Below, one piece after another: positions 6,636-56,972 of a DNA stretch of 64,000 nucleotides. This stretch comes from Antedon mediterranea (Eukaryota; Animalia; Echinodermata), in NCBI RefSeq assembly GCF_964355755.1, contig NC_092679.1:17157432-17221431 (forward strand), given 5' to 3'. The first letter of the stretch is position 1, and each line of letters opens with the position of its first letter. The notes under the pieces were generated by a model, which saw nothing but the letters and a program-made list of their open reading frames with translations, did no database searches and was not told the origin of the DNA. A program made the translations under genes and the position numbers.

Positions 6636-19296
<12,661 letters not shown>

Positions 19297-19713
19297 GTTT
19301 ATGCTTCTCTTTCTAGGCAAAAACAATCTAAATCTCTACATTTTTCTAAAGAAAAGCTTTGTAAAATGTGAATATATGAGGATCTTATCCTCGTAACATA
19401 AAATCAAAACGAAAATTCATGTCTTTCGGATCCAAATCCTTTGTCCAATTTTTGGTTCACAGGTTGTGTGTGGTCCGCGTCCGATTCCGCGAGCGAGAAT
19501 TTAGAGATGGTTAAAAATGGCCAATTGAGGGCGACATTAGTCTAAATATTGTAAGCCTTTATAGTGCTTGTGTCAAGCTAGCCGACAATAAGCCAGCCGA
19601 CAATAAGCCAGCCCACTTTTATTTTTTCCAGCCGACAATAACTATGAAACGCCGTTTGTGTATTTTTCACATTTTCAGTATTGCTTAAGGTTTTTATAGT
19701 ATTAGAAATTCAA

Positions 19714-22700
19714 TATTTGTGAGAAAATGGCGGATTGCTCCTGGGAGTCACTTGGTGGGATTATACTAGGGTACCTCCTTAGTCGTCCAGTATAAGTTAG
19801 AGTAGGACCGCTGGTCCTGTTTACTCAGCCCTCATCTTTTAAATCTGAGTGTAACTCAATTACGATTTTTAATATTATAGTGAAATTTGATATTGTATTT
19901 GTGAGAAAATGGCGGATTGCTCCTGGGAGTCACTTGGTGGGATTATACTAGGGTACCTCCTTAGTCGTCCAGTATAAGTTAGGGTGGGACCACTGGTCCT
20001 GTTTACTCAGCCCTCATCTTTTAAATCTGAGTGTAACTCAATTACGATTTTTTATATAGTGAAATTTGATACTGTATTTGTGAGAAAATGGCGAATTGCT
20101 CCTGGGAGTCACTTGGTGGGATTATACTAGGGTACCTCCTTAGTCGTCCAGTATAAGTTAGAGTAGGACCACTGGTCCTGTTTACTCAGCCCTCATCTTT
20201 TAAATCTGAGTGTAACTCAATTACGATTTAAAATATTATAGTAAAATTTGATACTGTAGGCCCTATTTGTGAGAAAATGGCGGATTGCTCCTGGGAGTCA
20301 CCTGGTGGGATTGTACTAGGGTACCTCCTTAGTCGTCCAGTATAAGTTAAAGTAGGACCACTGGTCCTGTTTACTCAGCCCTCATCTTTTAAATCTGAGT
20401 GTAACTCAATTACGATTTTTAATATTATAGTAAAATTTGATACTGTATTTGTGAGAAAATGGAAGATTGCTCCTGTGAGTCACTTGGTGGGATTATACTT
20501 GGGTACCTCCTTAGTCATCCAGTATAAGTTAGAGTAGGACCACTGGCCCTGTTTACTCAGCCCTCATCTTTTAAATCTGAGTGTAACTCAATTACGATTT
20601 TTAATATTATAGTGAAATTTGATACTGTATTTGTGAGAAAATGGCGTATTGCTCCTGGGAGTCACTTGGTGGGATTATACTAATGGACCTCCTTAATCGT
20701 CCAGTATAAGTTAGAGTAGGACCGCTGGTCCCGTTTACTCAGCCCTCATCTTTTAAATCTATCTGAGTGTAACTCAATTACGATTTTTTATATAGTGAAA
20801 TTTGATACTGTATTTGTGAGAAAATGGCGGATTGCTCCAGGGAGTCACTTGGTGGGATTATACTAGGGTACCTCTTTAGTCGTCCAGTATAAGTTAGAGT
20901 AGGACCGCTGGTCCCGTTTACTCAGCAGCCCTCATCTTTTTAAATCTGCGTGTAACTCAATTACGATTTTAAATATTATAGTGAAATTTGGTACTGTATT
21001 TGTGAGAAAACGGCGTATTGCTCCTGGAAGTCACTCCGTGGGATTATACTAGGGTACCTCCTTAGTTGTCCAGTATAAGTTAGAGTAGGACCGCTGGTCT
21101 TGTTTACTCAGCCCTCATCTTTTAAATCTGAGTGTAACTCAATTACGATTTTTAATATTATAGTGAAATTTGATACTGTATTTGTGAGAAAATGTCGGAT
21201 TGCTCCTGGGAGTCACTTGGTGGGATTATACTTGGGTACCTCTTTAGTCGTCCAGTATAAGTTAGAGTAGGACCGCTGGCCCTGTTTACTCAGCCCTCAT
21301 CTTTTAAATCTGAGTATAACTCAATTACGATCTTTAATATTATAGTGAAATTTGATACTGTATTTGTGAGAAAATGGCGGATTGCTCCTGGGAGTCACTT
21401 GGTGGGATTATACTAGGGGACATCCTTAATCGTCCAGTATAAGTTAGAGTAGGACCGCTGGTCCCGTTTACTCAGCCCTTATCTTTTAAATCTGAGTGTA
21501 ACTCAATTACAATTTTTTATATAGTGAAATTTGATACTGTATTTGTGAGAAAATGGCGGATTGCTCCTGGGAGTCACTTGGTGGGATTATACTAGGGTAC
21601 CTCCTTAGTCGTCCAGTATAAGTTAGAGTTGGACCGCTGGTCCTGTTTACTCAGCCCTATTCTTTTAAATCTGGGTGTAACTCAATTACGATTTTAAATA
21701 TTATAGTGAAATTTGGTACTGTATTTGTGAGAAAACGGCGGATTGCTCCTGGAAGTCACTCGGTGGGATTATACTAGGGTACCTCCTTATTCGTCCAGTA
21801 TAAGTTAGAGTAGGACCACTGGTCATGTTTACTCAGCCCTCATCTTTTAAATCTGAGTGTAACTCAATTACGATCTTTAATATTATAGTGAAATTTGATA
21901 CTGTATTTGTGAGAAAATGGCGGATTGCTCCTGGGAGTCACTTGGTGGGATTATACTAGGGGACCTTCTTAATCGTCCAGTATAAGTTAGAGTAGAACCG
22001 CTGGTCCCGTTTACTCAGCCCTCATCTTTTAAATCTGAGTGTAACTCAATTACGATTTTTTATATAGTGAAATTTGATACTGTATTTGTGAGAAAATGGA
22101 GGATTGCTCCTGGGAGTCACTTGGTGGGATTATACTAGGGTACCTCCTTAGTCGTCCAGTATAAGTTAGATTTGGACCGATGGTCCTGTTTACTCAGCCC
22201 TTATCTTTTAAATCTGAGTGTAACTCAATTACGATTTTAAATATTATAGTGAAATTTGGTACTGTATTTGTGAGAAAACGGCGGATTGCTCCTGGAAGTC
22301 ACTCGGTGGGATTATACTAGGGTACCTCCTTAGTTGTTCAGTATAAGTTAGAGTAGGACCGCTGGTCTTGTTTACTCAGTCCTCATCTTTTAAATCTGAG
22401 TGTAACTCAATTAAGATTTTTTAAACAGTGAAATTTGATACTGTATTTGTGAGAAAATGGCGGATTGCTCCTGGTAGTCACTTGGTGGGATTATACTAGG
22501 GTACCTCCTTAGTCGTCCAGTATAAGTTAAGGTAGGACCACTGGTCCCGTTTACTCAGCCCTCATCTTTTAAATCTGAGTATAACTCAATTACGATTTTT
22601 AATATTATAGTGAAATTTGATACTGTATTTGTGAGAAAATGGCGGATTGCTCCTGGGAGTCACTTGGTGGGATTATACTAGGGTACCTCTTTTGTCGTCC

Positions 22701-25700
22701 AGTATAAGTTAGGGTGGGACCACTGGTCCCGTTTACTCAGCCCTCATCTTTTAAATCTGAGTGTAACTCAATTACGATTTTTAATATTATAGTGAAATTT
22801 GATACTGTATTTGTGAGAAAATGGCGGATTGCTCCTGGGAGTCACTTGGTGGGATTATACTAAGGGACCTCCTTAATTCTTCCAGTATAAGTTAGAGTAG
22901 GACCGCTGGTCCCGTTTACTCAGCCCTCATCTTTTAAATCTGAGTGTAACTCAATTACAATTTTTTATATAGTGAAATTTGATACTGTATTTGTGAGAAA
23001 ATGGCGAATTGCTCCTGGGAGTCACTTGGTGGGATTATACTAGGGTACCTCCTTAGTCGTCCAGTATAAGTTAGAGTAGGACCGCTGGTCCTGTTTACTC
23101 AGCCCTCATCTTTTAAATCTGAGTGTAACTCAATTACGATTTTAAATATTATAGTGAAATTTGGTACTGTATTTGTGAGAAAACGGCGGATTGCTCCTGG
23201 AAGTCACTCGGTAGGATTATACTAGGGTACCTCCTTAGTTGTCCAGTATAAGTTAGAGTAGGACCGCTGGTCTTGTTTCCTCAGCCCTTATCTTTTAAAT
23301 CTCAGTGTAACTCAATTACGATTTTTAATATTATAGTAAAATTTGATACTGTATTTGTGAGAAAATGGCGGATTGCTCGTGGGAGTCACTTGGTGGAATT
23401 ATACTAGGGTACCTCCTTAGTCGTCCAGTATAAGTTAGGGTGGGACCACTGGTCCCGTTTACTCAGCCCTCATCTTTTAAATCTGAGTGTAACTCAATTA
23501 CGATTTTTAATTTTATAGTGAAATTTGATACTGTATTTGTGAGAAAATGGCGGATTGCTCCTGGGAGTCACTTGGTGGGATTATACTAGGGTACCTCCTT
23601 AGTCGTCCAGTATAAGTTAGAGTAGGACCACTGGTCCTGTTTACTCAGCCCTCATCTTTTAAATCTGAGTGTAACTCAATTACAATTTTTTATATAGTGA
23701 AATTTGATACTGTATTTGTGAGAAAATGGCGGATTGCTCCTGGGAGTCACTTGGTGGGATTATACTAGGGTACCTCCTTAGTCGTCCAGTATAAGTTAGA
23801 GTAGGACCGCTGGTCCTGTTTACTCAGCCATCATCTTTTAAATCTGAGTGTAACTCAATTACGATTTTTAATATTATAGTAAAATTTGATACTGTATTTG
23901 TGAGAAAATGGCGGATTGCTCCTGGGAGTCACTTGGTGGGATTATACTAGGGTACCTCCTTAGTCGTCCAGTATAAGTTAGAGTAGGACCGCTGGTCCTG
24001 TTTACTCAGCCCTCATCTTTTAAATCTGAGTGTAACTCAATTACGATTTTTAATATTATAGTGAAATTTGATATTGTATTTGTGAGAAAATGGCGGATTG
24101 CTCCTGGGAGTCACTTGGTGGGATTATACTAGGGTACCTCCTTAGTCGTCCAGTATAAGTTAGGGTGGGACCACTGGTCCTGTTTACTCAGCCCTCATCT
24201 TTTAAATCTGAGTGTAACTCAATTACGATTTTTTATATAGTGAAATTTGATACTGTATTTGTGAGAAAATGGCGAATTGCTCCTGGGAGTCACTTGGTGG
24301 GATTATACTAGGGTACCTCCTTAGTCGTCCAGTATAAGTTAGAGTAGGACCACTGGTCCTGTTTACTCAGCCCTCATCTTTTAAATCTGAGTGTAACTCA
24401 ATTACGATTTATAATATTATAGTAAAATTTGATACTGTATTTGTGAGAAAATGGCGGATTGCTCCTGGGAGTCACTTGGTGGGATTGTACTAGGGTACCT
24501 CCTTAGTCGTCCAGTATAAGTTAAAGTAGGACCACTGGTCCTGTTTACTCAGCCCTCATCTTTTAAATCTGAATGTAACTCAATTACGATTTTTAATATT
24601 ATAGTAAAATTTGATACTGTATTTGTGAGAAAATGGAAGATTGCTCCTGTGAGTCACTTGGTGGGATTATACTTGGGTACCTCCTTAGTCATCCAGTATA
24701 AGTTAGAGTAGGACCGCTGGCCCTGTTTACTCAGCCCTCATCTTTTAAATCTGAGTGTAACTTAATTACGATTTTTAATATTATAGTGAAATTTGATACT
24801 GTATTTGTGAGAAAATGGCGGATTGCTCCTGGGAGTCACTTAGTGGGATTATACTAGGGTACCTCCTTAGTCGTCCAGTATAAGTTAGAGTAGGACCGCT
24901 GGTCCTGTTTACTTAGCCCTCATCTTTTAAATATGAGTGTAACTCAATTACGATTTTAAATATTATAGTGAAATTTGGTACTGTATTTGTGAGAAAACGG
25001 CGTATTGCTCCTGGAAGTCACTCCGTGGGATTATACTAGGGTACCTCCTTAGTTGTCCAGTATAAGTTAGAGTAGGACCGCTGGTCCCGTTTACTCAGCA
25101 GCCCTCATCTTTTTAAATCTGCGTGTAACTCAATTACGATTTTAAATATTATAGTGAAATTTGGTACTGTATTTGTGAGAAAACGGCGTATTGCTCCTGG
25201 AAGTCACTCCGTGGGATTATACTAGGGTACCTCCTTAGTTGTCCAGTATAAGTTAGAGTAGGACCGCTGGTCTTGTTTACTCAGCCCTCATCTTTTAAAT
25301 CTGAGTGTAACTCAATTACGATTTTTAATATTATAGTGAAATTTGATACTGTATTTGTGAGAAAATGGCGGATTGCTCCTGGGAGTCACTTGGTGGGATT
25401 ATACTTGGGTACCTCTTTAGTCGTCCAGTATAAGTTAGAGTAGGACCGCTGGCCCTGTTTACTCAGCCCTCATCTTTTAAATCTGAGTATAACTCAATTA
25501 CGATCTTTAATATTATAGTGAAATTTGATACTGTATTTGTGAGAAAATGGCGGATTGGTCCTGGGAGTCACTTGGTGGGATTATACATGGGGACATCCTT
25601 AATCGTCCAGTATAAGTTAGAGTAGGACCGCTGGTCCCGTTTACTCAGCCCTTATCTTTTAAATCTGAGTGTAACTCAATTACAATTTTTTATATAGTGA

Positions 25701-28700
25701 AATTTGATACTGTATTTGTGAGAAAATGGCGGATTGCTCCTGGGAGTCACTTGGTGGGATTATACTAGGGTACCTCCTTAGTCGTCCAGTATAAGTTAGA
25801 GTAGGACCGCTGGTCCTGTTTACTCAGCCCTATTCTTTTAAATCTGGGTGTAACTCAATTACGATTTTAAATATTATAGTGAAATTTGGTACTGTATTTG
25901 TGAGAAAACGGCGGATTGCTCCTGGAAGTCACTCGGTGGGATTATACTAGGGTACCTCCTTAGTCGTCCAGTATAAGTTAGAGTAGGACCACTGGTCATG
26001 TTTACTCAGCCCTCATCTTTTAAATCTGAGTGTAACTCAATTACGATCTTTAATATTATAGTGAAATTTGATACTGTATTTGTGAGAAAATGGTGGATTG
26101 CTCCTGGGAGTCACTTGGTGGGATTATACTAGGGGACCTTCTTAATCGTCCAGTATAAGTTAGAGTAGAACCGCTGGTCCCGTTTACTCAGCCCTCATCT
26201 TTTAAATCTGAGTGTAACTCAATTACGATTTTTTATATAGTGAAATTTGATACTGTATTTGTGAGAAAATGGAGGATTGCTCCTGGGAGTCACTTGGTGG
26301 AATTGTACTAGGGTACCTCCTTAGTCGTCCAGTATAAGTTAGATTTGGACCGATGGTCCTGTTTACACAGCCCTTATCTTTTAAATCTGAGTGTAACTCA
26401 ATTACGATTTTAAATATTATAGTGAAATTTGGTACTGTATTTGTGAGAAAACGGCGGATTGCTCCTGGAAGTCACTCGGTGGGATTATACTAGGGTACCT
26501 CCTTAGTTGTTCAGTATAAGTTAGAGTAGGACCGCTGGTCTTGTTTACTCAGTCCTCATCTTTAAAATCTGAGTGTAACTCAATTACGATTTTTTAAACA
26601 GTGAAATTTGATACTGTATTTGTGAGAAAATGGCGGATTGCTCCTGGTAGTCACTTGGTGGGATTATACTAGGGTACCTCCTTAGTCGTCCAGTATAAGT
26701 TAAGGTAGGACCACTGGTCCCGTTTACTCAGCCCTCATCTTATAAATCTGAGTGTAACTCAATTACGATTTTTAATATTATAGTGAAATTTGATACTGTA
26801 TTTGTGAGAAAATGGCGGATTGCTCCTGGGAGTCACTTGGTGGGATTATACTAGGGTACCTCTTTTGTCGTCCAGTATAAGTTAGGGTGGGACCACTGGT
26901 CCCGTTTACTCAGCCCTCATCTTTTAAATCTGAGTGTAACTCAATTACGATTTTTAATATTATAGTGAAATTTGATACTGTATTTGTGAGAAAATGGCGG
27001 ATTGCTCCTGGGAGTCACTTGGTGGGATTATACTAAGGGACCTCCTTAATTCTTCCAGTATAAGTTAGAGTAGGACCGCTGGTCATGTTTACTCAGCCCT
27101 CATCTTTTAAATCTGAGTGTAACTCAATTACAATTTTTTATATAGTGAAATTTGATACTGTATTTGTGAGAAAATGGCGAATTGCTCCTGGGAGTCACTT
27201 GGTGGGATTATACTAGGGTACCTCCTTAGTCGTCCAGTATAAGTTAGAGTAGGACCGCTGGTCCTGTTTACTCAGCCCTCATCTTTTAAATCTGAGTGTA
27301 ACTCAATTACGATTTTAAATATTATAGTGAAATTTGGTACTGTATTTGTGAGAAAACGGCAGATTGCTCCTGGAAGTCACTCGGTAGGATTATACTAGGG
27401 TACCTCCTTAGTTGTCCAGTATAAGTTAGAGTAGGACCGCTGGTCTTGTCTCCTCAGCCCTTATCTTTTAAATCTGAGTGTAACTCAATTACGATTTTTA
27501 ATATTATAGTAAAATTTGATACTGTATTTGTGAGAAAATGGCGGATTGCTCGTGGGAGTCACTTGGTGGAATTATACTAGGGTACCTCCTTAGTCGTCCA
27601 GTATAAGTTAGGGTGGGACCACTGGTCCCGTTTACTCAGCCCTCATCTTTTAAATCTGAGTGTAACTCAATTACGATTTTTAATTTTATAGTGAAATTTG
27701 ATACTGTATTTGTGAGAAAATGGCGGATTGCTCCTGGGAGTCACTTGGTGGGATTATACTAGGGTACCTCCTTAGTCGTCCAGTATAAGTTAGAGTAGGA
27801 CCACTGGTCCTGTTTACTCAGCCCTCATCTTTTAAATCTGAGTGTAACTCAATTACAATTTTTTATATAGTGAAATTTGATACTGTATTTGTGAGAAAAT
27901 GGCGGATTGCTCCTGGGAGTCACTTGGTGGGATTATACTAGGGTACCTCCTTAGTCGTCCAGTATAAGTTAGAGTAGGACCGCTGGTCCTGTTTACTCAG
28001 CCATCATCTTTTAAATCTGAGTGTAACTCAATTACGATTTTTAATATTATAGTAAAATTTGATACTGTATTTGTGAGAAAATGGCGGATTGCTCCTGGGA
28101 GTCACTTGGTGGAATTATACTAGGGTACCTCCTTAGTCGTCCAGTATAAGTTAGGGTGGGACCACTGGTCCCGTTTACTCAGCCCTCATCTTTTAAATCT
28201 GAGTTTAACTCAATTACGATTTTTAATATTATAGTGAAATTTGATACTGTATTTGTGAGAAAATGGCGGATTGCTCCTGGGAGTCACTTGGTGGGATTAT
28301 ACTAGGGTACCTCCTTAGTCGTCCAATTTAAGTTAGAGTAGGACCACTGGTCCTGTTTACTCAGCCCTCATCTTTTAAATCTGAGTGTAACTCAATTACG
28401 ATCTTTAATATTATAGTGAAATTTGATACTGTATTTGTGAGAAAATGGCGGATTGCTCCTGGGAGTCACTTGGTGGGATTATACTAGGGGACCTCCTTAA
28501 TCGTCCAGTATAAGTTAGAGTAGGACCGCTGGTTCCGTTTACTCAGCCCTCATCTTTTAAATCTGAGTGTAACTCAATTACGATTTTTTATATAGTGAAA
28601 TTTGATACTGTATTTGTGAGAAAATGGCGGATTGCTCCTGGGAGTCACTTGGTGGGATTATACTAGGGTACCTCCTTAGTCGTCCAGTATAAGTTAGATT

Positions 28701-31700
28701 TGGACCGCTGGTCCTGTTTACTCAGCCCTTATCTTTTAAATCTGAGTGTAATTCAATTACGATTTTAAATATTATAGTGAAATTTGGTACTGTATTTGGG
28801 AGAAAACGGCGGATTGCTCCTGGAAGTCACTCGGTGGGATTATACTAGGGTACCTCCTTAGTTGTTAGGTATAAGTTAGAGTAGGACCGCTGGTCTTGTT
28901 TACTCAGCCCTCATCTTTTAAATCTGAGTGTAACTCAATTACGATTTTTTATATAGTGAAATTTGATACTGTATTTGTGAGAAAATGGCGGATTGCTCCT
29001 GGGAGTCACTTGGTGGGATTATACTAGGGTACCTCCTTAGTCGTCCAGTATAAGTTAGAGTAGGACCGCTGGTCCTGTTTACTCAGCCCTCATCTTTTAA
29101 ATCTGAGTGTAACTCAATTACGATTTTTAATATTATAGTGAAATTAGATACTGTATTTGTGAGAAAATGGCGGATTGCTCCTGGGAGTCACTTGGTGGGA
29201 TTATACTAGGGTACCTTCTTAGTCGTCCAGTATAAGTTAGGGTGGGACCACTGGTCCCGTTTACTCAGCCCTCATCTTTTAAATCTGAGTGTAACTCAAT
29301 TACGATTTTTAATATTATAGTAAAATTTGATACTGTATTTGTGAGAAAATGGCGGATTGCTCGTGGGAGTCACTTGGTGGAATTATACTAGGGTACCTCC
29401 TTAGTCGTCCAGTATAAGTTAGGGTGGGACCACTGGTCCCGTTTACTCAGCCCTCATCTTTTAAATCTGAGTGTAACTCAATTACGATTTTTAATTTTAT
29501 AGTGAAATTTGATACTGTATTTGTGAGAAAATGGCGGATTGCTCCTGGGAGTCACTTGGTGGGATTATACTAGGGTACCTCCTTAGTCGTCCAGTATAAG
29601 TTAGAGTAGGACCACTGGTCCTGTTTACTCAGCCCTCATCTTTTAAATCTGAGTGTAAATCAATTACAATTTTTTCTATAGTGAAATTTGATACTGTATT
29701 TGTGAGAAAATGGCGGATTGCTCCTGAGAGTCACTTGGTGGGATTATACTAGGGTACCTCCTTAGTCGTCCAGTATAAGTTAGAGTAGGACCGCTGGTCC
29801 TGTTTACTCAGTCATCATCTTTTAAATCTGAGTGTAACTCAATTACGATTTTTAATATTATAGTAAAATTTGATACTGTATTTGTGAGAAAATGGCGGAT
29901 TGCTCCTGGGAGTCACTTGGTGGAATTATACTAGGGTACCTCCTTAGTCGTCCAGTATAAGTTAGGGTGGGACCACTGGTCCCGTTTACTCAGCCCTCAT
30001 CTTTTAAATCTGAGTTTAACTCAATTACAATTTTTAATATTATAGTGAAATTTGATACTGTATTTGTGAGAAAATGGCGGATTGCTCCTGGGAGTCACTT
30101 GGTGGGATTATACTAGGGTACCTCCTTAGTCGTCCAGTTTAAGTTAGAGTAGGACCACTGGTCCTGTTTACTCAGCCCTCATCTTTTAAATCTGAGTGTA
30201 ACTCAATTACGATCTTTAATATTATAGTGAAATTTGATACTGTATTTGTGAGAAAATGGCGGATTGCTCCTGGGATTCACTTGGTGGGATTATACTAGGG
30301 GACCTCCTTAATCGTCCAGTATAAGTTAGAGTAGGACCGCTGGTTCTGTTTACTCAGCCCTCATCTTTTAAATCTGAGTGTAACTCAATTACGATTTTTA
30401 ATATTATAGTGAAATTAGATACTGTATTTGTGAGAAAATGGCGGATTGCTCCTGGGAGTCACTTGGTGGGATTATACTAGGGTACCTTCTTAGTCGTCCA
30501 GTATAAGTTAGGGTGGGACCACTGGTCCCGTTTACTCAGCCCTCATCTTTTAAATCTGAGTGTAACTCAATTACGATTTTTAATATTATAGTAAAATTTG
30601 ATACTGTATTTGTGAGAAAATGGCGGATTGCTCGTGGGAGTCACTTGGTGGAATTATACTAGGGTACCTCCTTAGTCGTCCAGTATAAGTTAGGGTGGGA
30701 CCACTGGTCCCGTTTACTCAGCCCTCATCTTTTAAATCTGAGTGTAACTCAATTACGATTTTTAATTTTATAGTGAAATTTGATACTGTATTTGTGAGAA
30801 AATGGCGGAATGCTCCTGGGAGTCACTTGGTGGGATTATACTAGGGTACCTCCTTAGTCGTCCAGTATAAGTTAGAGTAGGACCACTGGTCCTGTTTACT
30901 CAGCCCTCATCTTTTAAATCTGAGTGTAAATCAATTACAATTTTTTCTATAGTGAAATTTGATACTGTATTTGTGAGAAAATGGCGGATTGCTCCTGGGA
31001 GTCACTTGGTGGGATTATACTAGGGTACCTCCTTAGTCGTCCAGTATAAGTTAGAGTAGGACCGCTGGTCCTGTTTACTCAGTCATCATCTTTTAAATCT
31101 GAGTGTAACTCAATTACGATTTTTAATATTATAGTAAAATTTGATACTGTATTTGTGAGAAAATGGCGGATTGCTCCTGGGAGTCACTTGGTGGAATTAT
31201 ACTAGGGTACCTCCTTAGTCGTCCAGTATAAGTTAGGGTGGGACCACTGGTCCCGTTTACTCAGCCCTCATCTTTTAAATCTGAGTTTAACTCAATTACA
31301 ATTTTTAATATTATAGTGAAATTTGATACTGTATTTGTGAGAAAATGGCGGATTGCTCCTGGGAGTCACTTGGTGGGATTATACTAGGGTACCTCCTTAG
31401 TCGTCCAGTTTAAGTTAGAGTAGGACCACTGGTCCTGTTTACTCAGCCCTCATCTTTTAAATCTGAGTGTAACTCAATTACGATCTTTAATATTATAGTG
31501 AAATTTGATACTGTATTTGTGAGAAAATGGCGGATTGCTCCTGGGATTCACTTGGTGGGATTATACTAGGGGACCTCCTTAATCGTCCAGTATAAGTTAG
31601 AGTAGGACCGCTGGTTCTGTTTACTCAGCCCTCATCTTTTAAATCTGAGTGTAACTCAATTACGATTTTTTATATAGTGAAATTTGATACTGTATTTGTG

Positions 31701-33795
31701 AGAAAATGGCGGATTGCTCCTGGGAGTCACTTGGTGGGATTATACTAGGGTACCTCCTTAGTCGTCCAGTATAAGTTAGATTTGGACCGCTGGTCCTGTT
31801 TACTCAGCACTTATCTTTTAAATCTGAGTGTAACTCAATTACGATTTTAAATATTATAGTGAAATTTGGTACTGTATTTGGGAGAAAACGGCGGATTGCT
31901 CCTGGAAGTCACTCGGTGGGATTATACTAGGGTACCTATTTAGTCGTCCAGTATAAGTTAGAGTAGGACCACTGGTCTTGTTTACTCAGCCCTCATCTTT
32001 TAAATCTGAGTGTAACTCAATTACGATTTTTTATATAGTGAAATTTGATACTGTATTTGTGAGAAAATGGCGGATTGCTCCTGGGAGTCACTTGGTGGGA
32101 TTATACTAGGGTACCTCCTTAGTCGTCCAGTATAAGTTAGAGTAGGACCGCTGGTCCTGTTTACTCAGCCATCATCTTTTAAATCTGAGTGTAACTCAAT
32201 TACGATTTTTAATATTATAGTAAAATTTGATACTGTATTTGTGAGAAAATGGCGGATTGCTCCTGGGAGTCACTTGGTGGAATTATACTAGGGTACCTCC
32301 TTAGTCGTCCAGTATAAGTTAGGGTGGGACCACTGGTCCCGTTTACTCAGCCCTCATCTTTTAAATCTGAGTTTAACTCAATTACGATTTTTAATATTAT
32401 AGTGAAATTGATACTGTATTTGTGAGAAAATGGCGGATTGCTCCTGGGAGTCACTTGGTGGGATTATACTAGGGTACCTCCTTAGTCGTCCAGTTTAAGT
32501 TAGAGTAGGACCACTGGTCCTGTTTACTCAGCCCTCATCTTTTAAATCTGAGTGTAACTCAATTACGATCTTTAATATTATAGTGAAATTTGATACTGTA
32601 TTTGTGAGAAAATGGCGGATTGCTTCTGGGATTCACTTAGTGGGATTATACTAGGGGACCTCCTTAATCGTCCAGTATAAGTTAGAGTAGGACCGCTGGT
32701 TCCGTTTACTCAGCCCTCATCTTTTAAATATGAGTGTAACTCAATTACGATTTTTTATATAGTGAAATTTGATACTGTATTTGTGAGAAAATGGCGGATT
32801 GCTCCTGGGAGTCACTTGGTGGGATTATACTAGGGTACCTCCTTAGTCGTCCAGTATAAGTTAGATTTTGACCGCTGGTCCTGTTTACTCAGCCCTTATC
32901 TTTTAAATCTGAGTGTAACTCAATTACGATTTTAAATATTATAGTGAAATTTGGTACTGTATTTGGGAGAAAACGGCGGATTGCTCCTGGAAGTCACTCG
33001 GTGGGATTATACTAGGGTACCTCCTTAGTTGTTAGGTATAAGTTAGAGTAGGACCGCTGGTCTTGTTTACTCAGCCCTCATCTTTTAAATCTGAGTGTAA
33101 CTCAATTACGATTTTTTATATAGTGAAATTTGATACTGTATTTGTGAGAAAATGGCGGATTGCTCCTGGGAGTCACTTGGTGGGATTATACTAGGGTACC
33201 TCCTTAGTCGTCCAGTATAAGTTAGAGTAGGACCGCTGGTCCTGTTTACTCAGCCCTCATCTTTTAAATCTGAGTGTAACTCAATTACGATTTTTAATAT
33301 TATAGTGAAATTAGATACTGTATTTGTAAGAAAATGGCGGATTGCTCCTGGGAGTCACTTGGTGGGATTATACTAGGGTACCTTCTTAGTCGTCCAGTAT
33401 AAGTTAGGGTGGGACCACTGGTCCCGTTTACTCAGCCCTCATCTTTTAAATCTGAGTGTAACTCAATTACGATTTTTAATATTATAGTAAAATTTGATAC
33501 TGTATTTGTGAGAAAATGGCGGATTGCTCCTGGGAGTCACTTGGTGGGATTATACTAGGGTACCTCCTTAGTCGTCCAGTGTAAGTTAGAGTAGGACCAC
33601 TGGTCTTGTTTACTCAGCCCTCATCTTTTAAATCTGAGTGTAACTCAATTACGATTTTTAATATTAAAGTGAAATTTGATACTGTATTTGTGAGAAAATG
33701 GAGGATTGCTCCTGGGAGTCACTTGGTGGGATTATACTAGGGTACCTCTTTAGTCATCCAGTATAAGTTAGAGTAGGACCACTTGCCTTGTTTAC
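19714..33795 (+). repeat. Satellite left arm, ~77-78 units of 179/182 bp
   Basis: Unit begins tatttgtgagaaaatggcggattgctcctgggagtcac; first starts at 19714, 19896, 20075. Confidence 0.98.
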
Positions 33796-33823
33796 TATAA
33801 TTTGTTTACTATAATTATTTCAA

Positions 33824-35265
33824 TATAATATTTAAAATCGTAATTGAGTTACACTCAGATTTAAAAAGATGAGGGCTGCTGAGTAAACGGGACCAGCGGT
33901 CCTACTCTAACTTATACTGGACGACTAAGGAGGTACCCTAGTATAATCTCACCAAGTGATTCCCAGGAGCAATCCGCCATTTTCTCACAAATACAGTATC
34001 AAATTTCACTATATAAAAAATCGTAATTGAGTTACACTCAGATTTAAAAGATGAGGGCTGAGTAAACGGGACCAGTTGTCCAACTTTAACTTATACTGGA
34101 CGATTAAGGAGGTCCCCTAGTATAATCCCACCAAGTGACTCATAGGAGCAATCCGCCATTTTCTCACAAATACAGTATCAAATTTCACTATAATATTAAA
34201 AAGTCGTAATTGAGTTACACTCAGATTTAAAAGATGAGGGCTGAGTAAACAAGACCTGCGGTCCTACTCTAACTTATACTGGACAACTAAGGAGGTCCCC
34301 TAGTATAATCCCACCGAGTGACTTCCAGGAGCAATCCGCCGTTTTCTCACAAATACAGTACCAAATTTCACTATAATATTTAAAATCGTAATTGAGTTAC
34401 ACTCAGATTTAAAAAGATGAGGGCTGAGTAAACAGGACCAGCGGTCCTACTCTAACTTATACTGGACGACTAAGGAGGTACCCTAGTATAATCCAACCAA
34501 GTGACTCACAGGTGCAATCCGCTATTTTCTCACAAATACAGTATCAAATTTTACTATAATATTAAAAATCGTAATTGAGTTACACTCCGATTTAAAAGAT
34601 GAAGGCTGAGTAAACAGGACCAGCGGTCCTACTCTAACTTATACTGGACGACCAAAGAGGTACCTTAGTATAATCCCACCAAGTGACTCCCAGGAGCAAT
34701 CCGCCATTTTCTCACAAATACAGTATCAAATTTCACTATAATATTAAAAATCGTAATTGAGTTACACTCAGATTTAAAAGATGAGGGCTGAGTAAACAGG
34801 ACCAGCGGTCCTACTCTAACTTATACTGGATGACTAAGGAGGTACCCAAGTATAATCCCACCAAGTGACTCCCAGGAGCAATCCGCCATTTTCTCACAAA
34901 TACAGTATCAAATTTCACTATAATATTAAAAATCGTAATTGAGTTACACTCAGATTTAAAAGATGAGGGCTGAGTAAACGGGACCAGTGGTCCCACCCTA
35001 ACTTATACTGGACGACTAAGGAGGTACCCTAGTATAATCCCAGAAAGTGAATCCCAGGAGCAATCCGCCATTTTCTCACAAATACAGTATCAAATTTCAC
35101 TATAATATTAAAAATCGTAATGAGTTACACTCAGATTTAAAAGATGAGGGCTGAGTAAACAGGACCAGCGGTTCTACTCTAACTTATACTTGACGATTAA
35201 GGAGGTCCCCTAGTATAATCCCACCAAGTGACTCCCAGGAGCAATCCGCCATTTTCTCACAAATA
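33824..35265 (-). repeat. Satellite right arm, ~8 units, inverted
   Basis: Reverse complement of the same unit (ccgccattttctcacaaata), running into the right TIR. Confidence 0.97.
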
Positions 35266-35493
35266 TTGAATTTCTAATACTATAAAAACCTTAAGCAATA
35301 CTGAAAATGTGAAAAATACACAAACGGCGTTTCATACTTATTGTCGGCTGGAAAAAATAAAAGTGGGCTGGCTTATTGTCGGCTGGCTTATTGTCGGCTA
35401 GCTTGACACAAGCCTTTATAGTACTGAAAAATTAAACCACACTTGTTTCTACAGATCAAACAATTCAAATTACATAAAAGCTATCATAAGCAT

Positions 35494-35673: not shown

Positions 35674-38390
35674 ATGTTGGATTCTCTTAAACAATCCGTA
35701 AATTTAACCACACAGTGGATGTTGGATGAAACATACCTGTGGTATTTCTGGCTTCGTGACACAGTTGTGAAAATAACATTTGTTGTCTCAATTTTAGCAT
35801 TATTGTTTTGGATTTCAACATTTTTGTATGGTAGTTTTTATTATGCCTACATGCCTACTGCAATACATTCAAGGCCTGTATATTTGACTTTCAGGTAATA
35901 AGGAAATTCAAATGGCTCCCTGATTTGCAGTTTCTTCCGTCATCATGATGATCGAGTCAAAATATTTTTTTTAGTTTACTAGCCTAGTACTTGCTGGTAG
36001 TACAGTTGTTCAATTAAGATGTCGACTAAATCTTGTTTGTGAAAATTCCTTCTACTTCAACTTGTCAGAATAAACATAATATATGCTTTACGTTGATTAT
36101 ACAATGAAAAATATGTTTTATTTTAAAATCATTTTATCTACCGTAGGCATTATTCTAAAGGAAATAAAAAAATGTTCACTAAAATAATAATTTCTTTTGA
36201 ATTGTTTTTATTTTCAGTCCTTGTGAAGTTTATTCTGGATCCAAAGAATGTCATTTTCCATATGCAAACCTTACATTTGTAACACAATCAAAAACACAGG
36301 TAGGCCTACTTCAAAACATACACTTCATTGATATTTTTTAATTTATTTATTCAATCATTCAACTGCTTTCAGCATTTTTAAATTCTTTTCTAGTTTCTAA
36401 TGCGAGGCCAAAGTTACAACATCTTTTTACAAATGGACGTCCCGCAGTCCCCAACTAATGAAAATCTTGGTATGTATTGTTAAATCATAATTAAGCAAAA
36501 ATATTGAAAAATCTTTATTATACTTCATGGACTGATTGGATACCCATTTGCACACAAACATTAATCTAGAGACAGAAGGCAAACTATAGTAGTCACTCTG
36601 ATTCTTATACCATTGAATTTTATCTTGCTTTTTAATACCATTTCATTTTTCTTTTCTTGTAGGCATGTTTATGATTAACCTGGAATTGTTTGCTAAGGGT
36701 GGAAAAATTGTTGACAAATCATCTCGACCTGTAAGTGCTCTTATTGCCTGTCTTCACCATTTACATCCCTAGCTTCCTGAAAATTTGCAGTACATCCCTA
36801 GCTTCCGATATCCCTTTTCATTGTATTTTGTTACAATTGAATCATTTCAATTCAACAATTTATTTTTCAGGCTTTAATCAAGTATAGGTCTGCATTACTG
36901 AAGTATTTGGAGGTTATGATTTTTTCGCCGTTCTTGATGACAGGCTACAAACATGAAAAAGAGAGTTTAACGGTGGAACTTTACGACAATTTTATAGACA
37001 ATGTGGTAAGTATTGGGAAATGGAGTTTTGGTCACATTGGGGCTGGGACCTGAAGAAAGTATTGAGACTAGTTATCCAACAGTGTTCTGGTCAGCCAACC
37101 GTGTTCTGGTCAGTCAATCGTGTTCTGGTCAGTCAATCAGTGTTTTTATGTACAGTCAAAATTTGTATTTTTATAATATAAGCAAACAGAAATTGTAAAT
37201 ACATATAGTTTTGTCCTGTGTGATGTCAGTGTAACACATACTGTAAATCGGTAATTGCTATCAATTTTCTTTGTTATTGTAGTATCAACCAATTATTGGA
37301 GCAAATCTAATGATACAAGCACGTCGGATTGAAATGTACTCTTCGTCGTTGGAAGTTTACGCTCGCTTTAGTGGTCTCAGGTATTTTTACTCAACTTGCG
37401 TATCTGGACGCCATTTTCGAGCATTATGGTGGTGATATAATCATTTATATCATGTGGTCTGATATTATTGTGAACACTGTGTTAATTTGTATAAACTATT
37501 TTTGTCTTCAGGTATTTCATGTTCTTCTGGCCAGTGAGCTCTGCGTTCTTTGGCATTGTGGGGTTCTTCACCCTACTTTGTTTTGTCACAGCATTGTCCT
37601 GGTACAGATGCATAGGGTTGATATCAAAGCATACACAATCACTGATTCAGGCCTCCGGGCATGGTCCAGTACAAAATAGGTATGGTGAAAGGCTGCAGCA
37701 GGTACAGAGGATGGTGGAACAGGAAAGATTAGGTAAGTGACATTGGGAATGTGACATAATAGTGGCAGCCTCAGTACAAGATAAATTGATGTGTATAAAT
37801 GTGTGGGAATAACTCGTGTCTTGCAGCCAAACTGTGCTGAATTGCACACAGGTGTGAAAGACATATACAAATATGTACACTTATGTTCTACCACCAGAGC
37901 CATGCTCAAGGATAACTCTTCTTCACTTTAACCGCTCAACTATGTAGGCTACGTTCCTCTTCTTTGTTTTCCATTTGGTACAAAAGTATTTCTTATTTTC
38001 AATACAGCCGAGATACGAACTAGACCAGCTCATGTAACTGTTCTGGACACCGCGTCAAGTGTTGCCCCACCAGTTGGTAGAGTGTCTGGACAACCAAAGG
38101 CATCAAGACAGACTCACATGGAAGACGGAGAGGAAGATGGCACTTTAGCTGCTTCTATCAGACCTAAAAGTAATGTGCAAACACTCCACCAAGGATCAAG
38201 ACGACCAGATGTTTCAGAAGACACACCAGTTCATCTCTCGGCAAGTGATAGCAGTGGTAGTAGTGACAGTCTTGTAAGAGTTGGGGAAGAGGTTATGGCG
38301 GATGTCAACGGTATAAATAATGAACATCTGATCGAACCAGAAGAAGACGAAGAAGTAACAGTCAGACGTCGAAAACCTTTTGACCAATAA
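35674..38390 (+). CDS. BSCL2: Seipin, 8 coding exons
   Basis: Exons approx 35674-35895 (FLYGSFYYAYMPT..HSRPVY), 36218-36299 (C.FPYAN), 36394-36469 (LMRGQ.Y...PQSPTNENLG), 36663-36730 (MFMI), 36871-37005 (KYRSALL), 37283-37380 (IEMY...ARFSGLR), 37512-37732 (YFMFFWP, TM2), 38008-38390 (acidic tail ending VRRRK). Confidence 0.95.
37080..37138. repeat. 19-bp minisatellite x3
   Basis: gtgttctggtcag(c/t)caa(c/t)c repeated in a seipin intron. Confidence 0.8.
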
Positions 38391-38953: not shown

Positions 38954-41900
38954 TTAGAAAAGTTTTGTCTTTCCTCTTTGGTATTGTCGAAGCTGCCTTA
39001 ATCCAGCATGTGCAGTACAGAAAAGTAGTCCTGCCCCGTGGCCAATCACAACACCAATTGAACATGATATAGGCCACACCTAAATCAGCAAAAAAAAACA
39101 GATAACATAAATAAAACCATTAGAAAGTTCTCGTTGTTCATGACAGGGGTTGGAATTAAAGCAAATAAGCAACTTGTACTGAAATCATTCGGAATAAAAT
39201 TGTGATTAGGATTTACCTGCCAAGGCCTATCCCAATCTAGTGGTATCGGTAAAGCTCCTAGCCACGCCCCTAACAAGCTACAACAGGCAACTGCTAATAC
39301 ATAGCTTTCCACTCCTGGTAAAGTACTGAAAATAAAGCAATAAACAGGTTGGTTTGGAAAAGTGTTCTCTGTGGAAATTATAGGTGGCAGCAAACAGGTT
39401 TTATTAAAGGCAAATAATAGAATCATGTATCTTTAATAAAAAATATAGGTGGCAGCAAACAGAGTTTTTTAAAAGGCAAATAATGAATCATGTATCTTTA
39501 TTATTCTGTACTCACCTTCCTATAATTAGTCTATTCCAAGCATCTTGATTAAGTTCATTAATTAATAAACATGGTAAAGAAACTAATGTTGACATTAACA
39601 CAGAGAAAACAAATGTCTCTTCTATATTTCTGCAAGAATAAACAATCCATGGTTTGTTATACATTTTGTTGAAGGTTATGAAAAATTTGCATAACATGTG
39701 GTTGTGTGAAATATGTGCCAGTCTGGTATTGTTACTTCCGAAGTGCGCAGAGTGTATCATGGTCAACTTCTGAGCACTCCAGACACGCATATCATATTAG
39801 GTTTAGGTGATTCTGATGAATAAAGATTTTCTTTAGTGAGTGATTGAGCAGACAAACTAGTAAGAAAACAATGGTACATTTTTAACATTTAAAATGTTTA
39901 ATATAAAATTTTCCTGTAATACTTACTCAAATATATAAGCACCATACAGCACTGAAATGACTTGGAAAGCAATACAACTGGCAACGTACAAGAAGAATAA
40001 TAAAACTACATTTCTTAACTTGATCCAAAAAGAGATTCTCGTCTGATAAAAAATAAATAATGCTTTTGTTACAAGGGAGTCACATAAGAGACATTAAAAT
40101 ATACTTTATTTTTGCTTTATATGTAATATTTAACTGATTTAAATTAATGTGAAAAATTCCCACTATATGTGAAAAATTACTAATTGCAAATCTACTCGCT
40201 GCATACGCGCATACTCTATGGCAATGATTTTGAGGAATGAAGGCCACTTTTTGGCAAAAAACTCATAAATATGAGTACTGTTGTAGTTGAACCGTACTGC
40301 AGAGGTATGGGGTTACTACAGACAGAGATCATGGAGGTTCACTATAATATTTCTATGGGTATTTTAAAAACCATAGAAGCCTAATAATAATTAGTTATCC
40401 GCTTAGTAGCGGATAACTCCTTGTAATCGTCCTGGATCTTTTTTTTTTTCTTTATATTATTCTTCTTTCTTTCTCCTCCATTTTTGTGTCTCGCGTATCT
40501 CAAAAACTTGTAAACATAACATTTCATAACTTTGTCAACATATGGGCATTTACGTGAAGTTGTGCACCTCCTATTTTGAATGACGTCAGAGTTGCGCAAT
40601 GTGACTTACGTGCGATTTTATGATTTTTTATGATTGATCATAGGCTAAAAACCAAGCATAATTTTATTTTGACACTTTCTGAAAATTTAAGTCATATCAA
40701 GGGCAAACTTTTTGTCGATTAAAAATGCCATGTTTTACAAGACGTTACGCGCGCACGCGCATTTCTCCTCTATTTTAGTGTCTCGCTTATATCAAAAATG
40801 TGTAAACATAACATTTCATAACTTTGTCAACATATGGGCATTCACGTGAAGTTGTGCACCTACTATTGTGAATGACGTCAGAAATGCGTAACGTGACTTA
40901 CGCGTGATTTTATGAATTTCCCGTATTCAACATAGATTGAAAACCATATAACTATGTAAGTTGAAACTTAGCAAAAGTTTAATTTATATCTTGCGCTAAC
41001 TTTTTGTGCACTAAAAATGGCATTTTTTAAACGAAGTTACGCGCGCACGCGCATTTAAAATTTAAAATGCACAAAATTAATTTCTAATCAACTTTCTACG
41101 CTGATCATGAAATTTTGAGCATGTCAAAAATTCCCACGCGCGCGAACAATTTTACGCGCGTGGTCCGCACGTAGCGCTAAAAACATCTGTTTTTGCGTGA
41201 ATTATGTCTTTCCAGCCTTTTATAGTAATTTTATCAAATTTTAAAACAATTTAGACTTAAAATTACGTCATACGAGCACGTCGAATTATACAATTTGTGC
41301 GTGTTTTTAAAGAAAAAATTCAAAAATTCGTCAAAATTATGCCTTTTTTTAAACAATCATAGATTCTAAACTACGTGGAGAACTTTTTTTTACTTACATA
41401 TTCTGGAAGGTGATGAGTTGTAGATATCGGATCATTAATCAATATGGCTAACCGGACATTGTGACGTCATCGTATGGCCACGCGAATATAAAATATAGGA
41501 TTTTTGTCTCTTTCGTCATAGCTCATCACATTTAATAGAGCGCATCTCCACTTATTCGTTGTCCATTTTCACCCCGATTTTAATATATTCTAGGTCAATC
41601 AACTATCTTTTGCATGAATTAAATTTTTTAAAATTTTTTTAACGTCATCATGCCTACAAATTTAAATTACGTTGGTCATTAATTTCATCTTTACAGTAAA
41701 TTTTAATCTGTTATAGCTCGTAAGAATAAAATGTGATAATCACGAATAAAACGTTTTCAGGAAGCTATTGTATTGTAGATACAAAATCATGTGAAAATTG
41801 TGCCAATTGAATGTTGTGACATCATCATATGGCCAGTTAAATAAAAAAAGTCGTATTTTCATCTTTTGCCTTATATTTCATTACATTTAAAAGAGCGCGC

Positions 41901-42733
41901 ATTAATATTTCACGTATTCAAATTTCTTCTACACGTTAATATGTTGTTGCTGAGATAATTTTATTCTGAAATTTCTACTTTTGCATTTCATTTTGAAACC
42001 GTCAAGATGTTAAAAATTACAATAAAATACCGGTCCCGTAATTTCACCTATTTTACACTGTTTGTGATATGTATACAGATTGTACTGTGTATACTATATG
42101 ACACAAAATTACAGAATTCAGAAATAACAACATATCATATTCTTCAGTTCAGGTCATAATGCCTTAATATTTTTCTGTGTGCAATATTCTAACGTATGAC
42201 ATGCACGTGGCGTTTGTCGAGCGGATAACTAACTCGTCAAAGTGACGAGTTTCATGTCTAGTTAATATTATTATTATTAATAAGTATAATTATATTTATT
42301 TCAAAAAATAAAATATCCATATTTATAATAAATATTTATGTATAACAAACCTACATAAAAAACAGCATTGATTGAAACATTGAATAAAAGAGGTAAAGTG
42401 TCGCATATTGCCATTTGTAGGCCCAAAAACACAAACCTTGTAAATCAATACACCCGTACTACTGCGATGGCTAGCTGCCTTGCCCACGCCTGCCAACTTG
42501 ACCAAAACAAACAGCAACAGCTGAAACACGGCCCACGAACATGCTAGGGTTTTTATAAGAAAAAGAGGAGTATATACTTCCTCAATATCTTGAATTTGTA
42601 AAGAAACTAATGCAACAATTATATAAAATACAGATGTGATTGTAGCGAGTAAAGCAAAAGTATTAGTTACGGAATATGAGCCGGTTTTTCCATCATTAAT
42701 TCTGCCTTCTACACTTCTACTGGGTGCTGCCAT
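38954..42733 (-). CDS. PIGF: GPI anchor biosynthesis protein PIG-F, 5 exons
   Basis: Exons approx 42438-42733, 39927-40043 (VISVLYGAY), 39516-39629 (EETFVFSVLMSTL), 39218-39326 (GAWLGALPIPLDWDRPWQ), 38954-39079 (VWPISCSIG...*). The GAWLGAxPIPLDWxRPWQxWP motif is diagnostic. Confidence 0.94.
40391..42263 (+). mobile_element. Non-autonomous Helentron/DINE-1-like (HINE) element in PIGF intron 1
   Basis: 13-bp subterminal IRs ttagttatccgct (40391) / agcggataactaa (42220); 5' palindrome agttatccgct-tagt-agcggataact; 3' stem-loop aactcgtca-aag-tgacgagtt then ctagtt; internal ~292-bp tandem duplication. Confidence 0.85.
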
Positions 42734-56579: not shown

Positions 56580-56972
56580 TTTTAAAGATGTACCTAGGCC
56601 TATTTTGTGCAAGGAGCAATGGGTTAATAAAACTAATATTTTATATAACATATATCTGTCCAATCAGAGACCGATGTTCTGTTGACTAGATGACCTTTAA
56701 AATGTTTTTAATTAGTGACATGTGCTGACCATATTTATTAACCATTTTTTTCTTATAGAAAAAAAGTACATAGACAAGTTACTGTATTCTATTTAAAGAT
56801 GTACCTAGGCCTATTACTTATGTGCAAGGAGCAATGGGTTGATAAAACTAATATTTATTACGAAATATATCCATCCAATCAGAGACCGATGTTCTGTTGA
56901 ATAGATGACCATATTTATTAACCCTTTTTTCTTATAGAAAAAAGTAGAAACAAGTTACAGTATTCTATTTAT
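56580..56972. repeat. ~211-bp local tandem duplication
   Basis: tttaaagatgtacctaggcctat at 56581 and 56792, with shared ccaatcagagaccgatgttctgttga. Confidence 0.85.

Follow-up and report, generated by a model that had tools for sequence, protein, structure and literature searches.

A likely Mutator/Rehavkus-type foldback transposon, built almost wholly of satellite DNA, between the PAPOLA and seipin genes of the crinoid Antedon mediterranea

Introduction

By what route does satellite DNA enter gene-rich euchromatin? The question is still debated, and it is posed directly by a 64,000-nucleotide stretch of the Antedon mediterranea genome (hereafter the window). There, two housekeeping genes, poly(A) polymerase (PAPOLA) and seipin, start divergently, and between their starts lies a 15.8-kb insertion (19557..35422) that has no gene of its own and is built almost wholly of a 182-bp satellite. 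A first-pass annotation had described it as a young, non-autonomous foldback transposon acting as a mobile satellite seed, caught while one arm expands. Its intact target-site duplications (TSDs) and terminal inverted repeats (TIRs), together with a readable duplication history, allow the cargo of older units to be separated from later block growth at one locus; if the insertion is polymorphic, it is also a natural experiment on the effect of 16 kb of satellite in a promoter common to two genes. Among echinoderms, the TU elements of sea urchins are foldbacks with modular inverted arms. Our literature searches found no paper on TU elements, none on crinoid satellite DNA and nothing relevant on gap-repair-driven satellite expansion.

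The reading that we favour, with somewhat better than even confidence, is that the insertion is a Mutator/Rehavkus-type foldback whose transposase was probably supplied from elsewhere and which probably entered the PAPOLA/seipin promoter with arms already several kilobases long.

Results

The PAPOLA and seipin starts are 16.4 kb apart with the element and would be ~520 bp apart without it, and the surrounding DNA is gene-dense, as the first-pass annotation had it. On the PAPOLA side, a 2522-nt contig from read set X7 shows 0 differences from the window over 19289-19474 and departs from it at the GT donor; the downstream exons match PAP_NTPase, PAP_central and PAP_RNA-bind, and the left end of the element is ~90 bp from the known 5' extent of the PAPOLA transcript. 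On the other side, the seipin coding start lies 261 bp past the right TIR, its start methionine is the start of the Antedon and Anneissia seipins, and 427 of 427 residues of the Antedon seipin map to the window. This position between divergent gene starts fits MULEs, which tend to enter genes or their vicinity (PMC6446971).

The element is flanked by two copies of the 9-mer CTTTATAGT, the only two occurrences on both strands of the 64 kb. When we tested target duplications from 5 to 15 bp across the element ends, no other length gave a match; a 9-bp match at any one given place would arise by chance with a probability of ~1e-5. The two TIRs differ only at TIR position 77; both the TSD and the ~148-bp TIRs with one mismatch are as first described. 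The TIR terminus is a 13-bp imperfect palindrome, and a subterminal repeat with a 15-bp period has its core at TIR positions 15, 30 and 65 and a partial copy at 45. No further TIR copies were found inside the 64-kb window.

Table 1. Coordinates of the element, its parts and the neighbouring genes in the window.
Feature	Position	Strand	Basis or remark
PAPOLA first exon	19289..19474	-	predicted ATG 19296; splice donor after 19289
Left 9-bp TSD	19557..19565	+	exact match to 35414-35422
Left 148-bp TIR	19566..19713	+	palindrome and subterminal repeats; outer end meets other flanks in X7, X5
Long arm F01-F23, 23-unit block copy 1	19714..23894	+	unit comparison
Long arm F24-F46, 23-unit block copy 2	23895..28067	+	0.55-0.66% divergent; rearranged F29-F30 excepted
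Long arm, 10-unit block F44-F53, then three partial copies (F54-F76)	27525..33502	+	10-mer parse
Long arm end: F77 (last full unit), F78 (partial)	33503..33796	+	unit cutting
20-bp centre, arms head to head	33797..33816	.	tandem duplication and X1 contig, 0 differences
Short arm, 8 units	33817..35265	-	every unit more than 2 differences from all long-arm units
Right 148-bp TIR	35266..35413	-	147/148 identical to left TIR
Right 9-bp TSD	35414..35422	+	exact match to left copy
Seipin coding exons	35674..38390	+	Pfam Seipin

The element holds seven stop-to-stop frames of 63-82 aa, every one within the repeat arrays and none (0/7) with a Pfam match, in agreement with the earlier view that it lacks coding capacity and is non-autonomous. 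Pfam found no transposase domain in 49 frames (18 + 31, part of the listed frames), and Rfam gave 0 matches over 19400-20300 at E up to 1. A 20-base TIR pattern had 0 matches in prokaryote genomes; its three matches in metagenome contigs were only 21-28 bp long, in contigs of 47-52% GC, and we attribute them to chance.

To look beyond the window, we compared contigs from runs X1, X2, X5, X7 and X10 (five of 14 runs). TIR depth was high in four of four runs, and loose ends with discordant flanks fell exactly at 19566 in X7 (two contigs, agreement 0.6) and X5 (four contigs, 0.64). These differing flanks support a dispersed TIR family. Summed unit/TIR depth, which reflects contig depth and not copy number, was 33-40 in organism A, close to the reconstructed 31-unit arm, and 2.5-3.6 in organisms B and C. 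In X10 (organism C) depth is low and the TIR alleles are B-like; this sample is perhaps not independent of organism B. No empty site was seen, an uninformative negative: the unique left flank is mostly uncovered in X1, X5 and X10, and the X7 contig ends at 19474. X7 resembles RNA, judging by its spliced PAPOLA contig; because its unit/TIR ratio is the same as that of X1, we do not infer from its satellite contigs that the satellite is transcribed.

The arms meet at the 20-bp centre, where the join lies within a 14-bp tandem duplication (33788-33815). The join also appears to carry a 6-bp microhomology, which presupposes the common A-variant unit as right partner. An 89-nt contig from X1, with 39 letters to the left of the centre and just 30 to the right, reproduces it at 0 differences; its depth of 192.5 is 0.2% of the TIR depth in X1 (~99,000), and unit depth in X1 is, as a rough figure, ~20,000 times that of the centre. 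Since the inversion junction is reproduced exactly and at so low a fraction of TIR depth, we consider it real and single- or few-copy. The centre is bridged in X1 only; depth is zero at 33800-33804 in X2, X7 and X5, whose records are filtered, so that these holes are uninformative. X2 is another run of X1's sample, and X1 may be the sample behind the assembly itself. A separate 'opposite strands' signal at the joint 33796-33866 was considered as a second inversion and ruled out, because an ordinary unit gives the same signal on this reference.

These observations bear on whether the structure could be an assembly artefact, or a satellite block that was inverted by chance, with no transposition involved. 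No spanning contig or long read is present among the data examined, and the centre is absent from the X2 contigs, as an artefact would have it. Yet the X1 contig matches the centre base for base, the duplicated blocks described below are 2-19 substitutions apart and so not exact duplicates, the exact TSD would be a rare coincidence, and loose ends in two other samples place the TIR end independently. We regard such an origin as highly improbable.

Within the arms, TRF found a period of 182, with 77.6 forward copies at 19714-33796 and 8.0 reversed copies at 33817-35265, in an identical register at the TIR in both arms; the ~77 forward and ~8 inverted 179/182-bp monomers of the first-pass annotation are thereby reproduced. 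When the arrays were cut into 86 units, 55 measured 182 bp, 19 measured 179 bp and 11 measured 177-189 bp; the remaining unit, a partial one at the centre, measured 112 bp, and no large foreign insert was found among them. The unit variants show no excess of CpG transitions (6 at 8 CpG positions; 32 at 64 other C/G positions). A putative promoter-type (YY1-like) motif of the satellite unit occurs as an exact match at 60 sites of the element but at no other site of the 64-kb window.

The long arm carries clear traces of recent growth. Near-identical unit pairs at an offset of 23 number 25, as compared to a maximum of 8 in 2000 shuffles, and in the 10-mer parse, among the 23 units of F54-F76, 20 have a counterpart in F44-F53 at 3 differences or fewer, with F59, F68 and F72 at 4-7 differences from the nearest one. 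Recent block duplications (the 23-mer twice, the 10-mer ~4 times) account for ~46 of the 77.6 long-arm units, and the blocks have diverged by 0.18-0.88%, or 2-19 substitutions each. The 23-mer duplication begins at most ~45 bp from the TIR border, a post-hoc observation and a weak hint. That one arm has recently grown, much as had been proposed, is borne out by the duplications. The 78:8 asymmetry between the arms is probably due in part to the inner right arm having been lost at the centre junction.

Beneath this growth is an older layer of ~31 long-arm units that are ~6% apart. Long-arm units differ by a mean of 10.7 in pairwise comparison and fall into 28-38 distinct lineages; left and right units are on average 11.9 events apart, and left/right near-identity stops ~60 bp into the first unit. 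The older long-arm lineages also contain 29 of the 43 right-arm unit variants, and the recurrent variants at unit positions 91, 97 and 105 are widespread across the family in X1 and X7. The comparison of left and right units ruled out mirror-image arms, and a unit order common to both arms was ruled out by shuffling (586 of 2000). Because the ~31 units are ~6% apart and bear family-wide variants, the long arm was already long before its recent growth, and the description of the element as a seed is not supported in that form. Because this divergence is far above that of the TIRs, the element probably came with multi-kilobase arms: at 6% divergence ~9 TIR differences are expected and 1 is observed (Poisson p ~0.001). 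TIR-TIR conversion could have maintained TIR identity; the insertion would then be older and this argument weaker, and the nine unchanged TSD bases are a poor guide to age.

How much of the long arm grew in place can be judged against two other histories. If a small seed with few units per arm had landed and nearly all of the long arm had then grown at the locus, the share of recently duplicated units would be accommodated, as would the ~2.5-3.6 units per TIR by summed depth in organisms B and C and a second foldback in the same 64-kb window, of 744 bp with ~2+2 units. This history seems to us distinctly unlikely: young growth from few units predicts a far more uniform array than the older lineages form, with their right-arm variants and family-wide alleles, barring TIR homogenisation or unit import.

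Alternatively, the same kind of element could have reached its finished 15.8-kb form, with deleted centre and block duplications, elsewhere, and moved as one piece. TIR divergence (1/148, 0.7%) is indistinguishable from that of the duplicated blocks, both element ends are intact, long arms seem usual in organism A, and there is a precedent in TfSat06 of Tribolium, whose inverted termini exceed 11 kb and which is believed to spread by transposing (PMC12581902, accessible part). Against this, the low depth of the centre indicates that the structure has not been multiplied, although cut-and-paste could still yield one copy, and the authors of the Tetris study suggest, in its accessible part, that large arrays disrupt transposition (PMC4079207). 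We consider a one-piece jump the less probable course, albeit one with a real minority chance. Our preference remains arrival with multi-kilobase arms followed by block growth at this locus.

Discussion

Judged by its sequence, the element is likely a Mutator/Rehavkus-type foldback transposon. MULE TSDs range from 8 to 11 bp and those of Rehavkus are 9 bp (PMC6446971); the TSD here is exactly 9 bp, in one insertion, and the 148-bp TIRs are long and nearly identical. As in foldbacks, TIR, 15-bp repeats and 182-bp array occur on both sides, and the middle is 20 bp. As in Rehavkus, a 9-bp TSD and TIR accompany variable subterminal tandem repeats, which is a structural likeness only. The Rehavkus transposase has a PHD finger; the Antedon copy has no coding part. 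The Mutator/Foldback build recognised in the first-pass annotation is supported: TSD, TIR, terminal palindrome and subterminal repeats of 15 bp all resemble those of Muta1/Muta5. A MITE, which would be short, uniform, high-copy and with a common interior, does not describe a 15.8-kb element whose centre stands at 0.2% of TIR depth. The element is at the same time a satellite, with a 14-kb head-to-tail array, 23-mer and 10-mer blocks and genome-wide abundance, and this copy lies among genes.

A foldback of a different superfamily, for example P/Galileo-like, could have reached the same architecture independently. No transposase is seen, Galileo TIRs are long and internally repeated and yet belong to the P superfamily (PMC3573991), and the foldback form can emerge in several lineages (PMC4079207; accessible parts of both). 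However, 9 bp lies within the range of MULE TSD lengths and is the length given for Rehavkus (PMC6446971), and the TIR layout parallels that of Muta1/Muta5. We rate this as very unlikely.

Under the Mutator/Rehavkus-type reading, a MULE transposase would bind the terminal palindrome and the 15-bp repeats of both TIRs, whatever the interior, and make a 9-bp staggered cut. Unit divergence suggests arrival with at least ~31 left units and 8 right units, ~7.5 kb or more. The middle was then probably deleted by microhomology-mediated end joining, which would have removed the inner arms along with any transposase gene and left a presumed 6-bp overlap and the 14-bp duplication seen at the junction. 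The ~46 units (8.4 kb) that the long arm gained came in four or five block duplications, which may have arisen by out-of-register recombination or by repair between sister copies, probably at the PAPOLA/seipin locus. A bolder version, which we hold to be speculative and rather doubtful, is that in one Antedon lineage a foldback family, with relatives that have 2-3 repeats per arm, ballooned to 30-40 and still transposes 7-16 kb of satellite into active promoters, and that the PAPOLA/seipin copy split a 520-bp promoter, is still polymorphic and is tolerated via the YY1-like motif.

The hosts listed for Rehavkus are arthropods and annelids, with echinoderms absent (PMC6446971). In Tribolium, the accessible part of PMC12581902 describes Rehavkus foldback transposons with satellite termini (TfSat23, TfSat25/TCsat12 and TfSat06); that set includes copies with a central part, whereas the Antedon copy has just a 20-bp centre and a crinoid host. 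Muta1 and Muta5 of Aedes aegypti resemble the element in their 145/151-bp TIRs, 12/15-bp subterminal repeats, 8-9-bp TSD, terminal motif (palindromic as stated for Muta1) and many non-autonomous derivatives, and their subterminal repeats were shown to boost transposase binding and excision (PMC5225508, PMC5499845). Unlike the Antedon TIR, with three to four repeats, they have nine subterminal repeats, and their transposases are known; a 180-bp satellite layer is not reported for them in the accessible parts of these papers. Galileo of Drosophila mojavensis, in the accessible part of PMC3573991, has ~210-bp tandem repeats inside its TIRs, arms that expand and contract independently and deletion derivatives, but it belongs to the P superfamily and has only 0-3 repeats per TIR.

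The accessible part of PMC4079207, which also mentions sea-urchin foldbacks, describes Tetris of Drosophila virilis, like our element a non-autonomous foldback with tandem repeats in both arms and a transposase that was not found. It has an 8-10-bp TSD, by which it was assigned to Mutator, and ~220-bp repeats (the TIR-220 satellite) in arrays of up to 66 copies, the long ones bounded by two terminal domains. Tetris repeats have 37 bp in common with the TIR, whereas derivation of the Antedon unit from its TIR was ruled out (93 of 300 shuffles scored equally high). Tetris expansions lie in beta-heterochromatin, and few repeats are found in its complete copies; the Antedon element, by contrast, has a 78-unit arm in a copy that is intact, bounded by TSDs and placed between two gene starts. 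As far as the accessible parts of these reports go, the architecture has already been described in Drosophila and Tribolium, which limits how surprising the crinoid copy is.

Structure of the insertion

The 15,848-bp element (TSDs excluded) is almost certainly genuine, an insertion of one or another foldback type with satellite arms. The TSD, CTTTATAGT, is present as exact copies at 19557–19565 and 35414–35422 and nowhere else in the window; when the element ends were compared, no TSD of 5–8 or 10–15 bp matched, and at a predetermined position 9 bp would match by chance with a computed probability of about 1e-5. The TIRs are 148 bp each and differ at a single site. At its outer tip the TIR carries an imperfect palindrome of 13 bp; next comes a repeat with a 15-bp period, the core of which lies at TIR positions 15, 30 and 65. 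Between the TIRs we counted 77.6 satellite units forward and 8 reversed; most of the 86 units cut measure 182 bp (55 units) or 179 bp (19 units), and none carries a large foreign insert. None of the seven open frames inside the element (63–82 aa) has a Pfam match. The first-pass annotation had described a 9-bp TSD, TIRs of about 148 bp with one mismatch, about 77 forward and 8 inverted 179/182-bp monomers and no coding capacity, all of which these data bear out. Within the unit, the 10-mer AAAATGGCGG has 60 exact copies inside the element (19714–35265) and none elsewhere in the window, with a shorter version at 19515, upstream of PAPOLA; we take it to resemble a YY1 site.

The centre junction

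The left arm breaks off within a unit at 33796; the first base of the right arm is 33817. A 14-mer spanning the join is present twice in tandem, and at the join six bases are common to the left-arm end and the reversed unit of a common variant. Microhomology-mediated end joining usually leaves this kind of scar, in which microhomology is accompanied by a brief templated duplication. In public sequencing run X1, an 89-nt contig covers 33758–33846 with zero differences at a depth of 192.5, close to the 187.6 beside the left TSD and 0.2% of the TIR depth. Thus, read data contain the inversion junction, which has one or a few copies and is no family-wide interior. On the other side, X1 may come from the sample behind the assembly, contigs of X2 (same sample as X1), X5 and X7 do not cover 33800–33804, and among the runs examined no record spans the whole element. 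With the exact contig in hand, an artefact is scarcely credible.

History of the long arm

Numbering the long-arm units F01–F78 from the left TIR, we found that F01–F23 are repeated as F24–F46 (25 near-identical pairs at offset 23, as compared to a maximum of 8 in 2000 shuffles) and that F54–F76 are three partial copies of F44–F53. The duplicated blocks diverge by 0.18–0.88%, with a local exception at F06–07 versus F29–30 (5.5%). This recent part comprises about 46 units (8.4 kb); about 31.6 units (F01–23, F47–53 and F77–78) are left once duplicates are removed. The older units are on average 10.7 events apart (about 6%) and represent 28–38 lineages. Right-arm units form separate lineages, yet 29 of their 43 variants are common to the left arm, and the commonest unit variants occur family-wide (X1, X7).

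At 6% divergence about 9 TIR differences would be expected as compared to the 1 observed, a measure of age that conversion between the TIRs could mask; the simplest reading of these sequences is that the element inserted recently, with arms that were probably long by then. An earlier proposal of a mobile satellite seed with one arm expanding stands as regards expansion, since about 46 units arose by recent block duplication; the older units, about 6% apart against a single TIR difference, speak against the seed, and growth from a small seed is decidedly improbable.

We observed the TSD and TIRs, no coding capacity, dispersed TIR ends, a rare centre and block duplications, and we lean towards the following course of events: a MULE-type transposase acting in trans would have mobilised the element, which would have arrived with about 7.5 kb or more; end joining would have removed the middle; and out-of-register recombination or repair would have lengthened the long arm, probably in place. 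Set beside the rare centre, transposition of the complete 15.8-kb structure as one piece is doubtful.

The family in sequencing runs

The region is partly present in fourteen public runs (four coded organisms and one group), five of which were examined. When contigs were mapped on the window, unit and TIR were both found in 4/4 runs. At least two contigs of X7 and at least four of X5 have a loose end precisely at 19566 and a discordant flank beyond it, which confirms the terminus and indicates that further insertion sites exist. Unit–unit tandem joints were seen in X1 and X5. At a joint of X1 at 19751–19757, a unit variant has a 38-base hairpin-like insert.

The ratio of unit to TIR summed depth is 39.7 (X1) and 33.0 (X7) in organism A, as compared to 2.5 in organism B (X5) and 3.6 in organism C (X10). 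Summed depth does not measure copy number, and X10 may not be independent of organism B; as a hint, then, the ratios point to long arms in one lineage and short ones in another, with arm length possibly differing tenfold between related organisms.

At several TIR sites (19599–19711; for example 19634, 19668, 19680, 19698 and 19711) the allele in the window is unlike that of the majority of family contigs in X7, X5 and X10. Both TIRs of the element agree at these sites, indicating that TIR subfamilies exist. At an X7 loose end (19684), the inner TIR is joined to a related form of the TIR whose terminal palindrome is similar.

Insertion site and neighbouring features

PAPOLA reads leftward by Pfam matches. 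A 2522-nt X7 contig matches 19289–19474 exactly and exits the window at a GT donor, which positions the first exon; the predicted start codon is the ATG at 19296. Seipin starts at the Met where both crinoid proteins begin and matches the Antedon mediterranea protein over its entire length; this match and that of a TMEM26 exon identify the host as an Antedon feather star. The distance between the start codons is 16,377 bp now and would be 520 bp minus the element and one TSD; the element lies 92 bp past the point to which the PAPOLA transcript is known to extend in the 5' direction. Judging from these gene starts, the element likely lies inside a shared divergent promoter.

Features of the window, with genes in order from the left
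Feature	Position	Strand or place	Remarks
PAPOLA	9800–18400	-	
Seipin	35674–38390	+	
PIG-F	39085–42793	-	
Synoviolin/HRD1	45383–51526	-	
TMEM26-like	60478–63599	+	exon 99% identical to Antedon mediterranea TMEM26
Second foldback, 744 bp	44396–45139	synoviolin–PIG-F region	main-element build in miniature; 8-bp TSD 44388–44395 / 45140–45147
MITE-like element, 327 bp	18574–18900	PAPOLA intron 1	perfect 54-bp inverted ends, apparently TA-flanked
Short-repeat family	7160–8184, 12781–13782, 14892–14934, 17570–17617, 55171–57240		inverted ends, 21-bp internal tandem units; many recurrences in introns and spacers
Inverted-repeat/tandem elements	365–1005, 40470–41056, 62229–62612		a ~640-bp element (31–39-bp repeats inside), a 292-bp dimer, nested inverted repeats (TMEM26 intron)

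The second foldback sits between two minus-strand frames of the synoviolin–PIG-F region. Its 136-bp inverted ends are 99% complementary with a 9–10-bp minisatellite at the tips, and a 176-bp unit, present about 2+2 times, is arranged head to head around a middle without coding. Nothing in its sequence resembles the main element, and the window contains no further copy of it. Frames 1913–2521 (-) and 54716–55165 (+) have no Pfam match; nor do 12348–12722 (-) and 49891–50130 (+), whose translations give the impression of a LINE reverse-transcriptase C terminus.

Comparison with known systems

Among Aedes elements, Muta1 has TIRs of 145 bp, with a terminal palindrome of 10 bp and 12-bp repeats, and Muta5 has TIRs of 151 bp with 15-bp repeats, the TSDs of both being 8–9 bp (PMC5225508); Muta subterminal repeats increase transposase binding and excision (PMC5499845). 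The likeness of our TIR to these is one of layout, as distinct from a membership test. TSDs are 8–11 bp in MULEs and 9 bp in Rehavkus (PMC6446971). By its TSD and TIR the element is a candidate member of MULE or Rehavkus; we give very little weight to an element of another superfamily.

Tetris, a non-autonomous foldback of Drosophila virilis, has 8–10-bp TSDs and, in both arms, 220-bp repeats; its arrays reach 66 copies, and some lie between two terminal domains (PMC4079207). Tribolium Rehavkus has up to 50 repeats per terminus and termini longer than 11 kb; orthologous repeats that are short in one species reach 80.5 kb in its sibling (PMC12581902). In Galileo, repeat number changes independently per arm (PMC3573991), and satellites derived from or carried by TEs are common according to a 2025 review (PMC12628747). 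In a literature collection with few subscription papers, we found no description of this family under crinoid satellite DNA, Antedon transposable elements (judged by titles and the opening lines of abstracts) or echinoderm satellite–transposon links. Taken together, the element appears to operate like Tetris, Tribolium Rehavkus, Galileo and MULEs; well preserved, it is particular in the intact boundary around a 78-unit arm, in a history that tells cargo from later growth and in its position between two gene starts.
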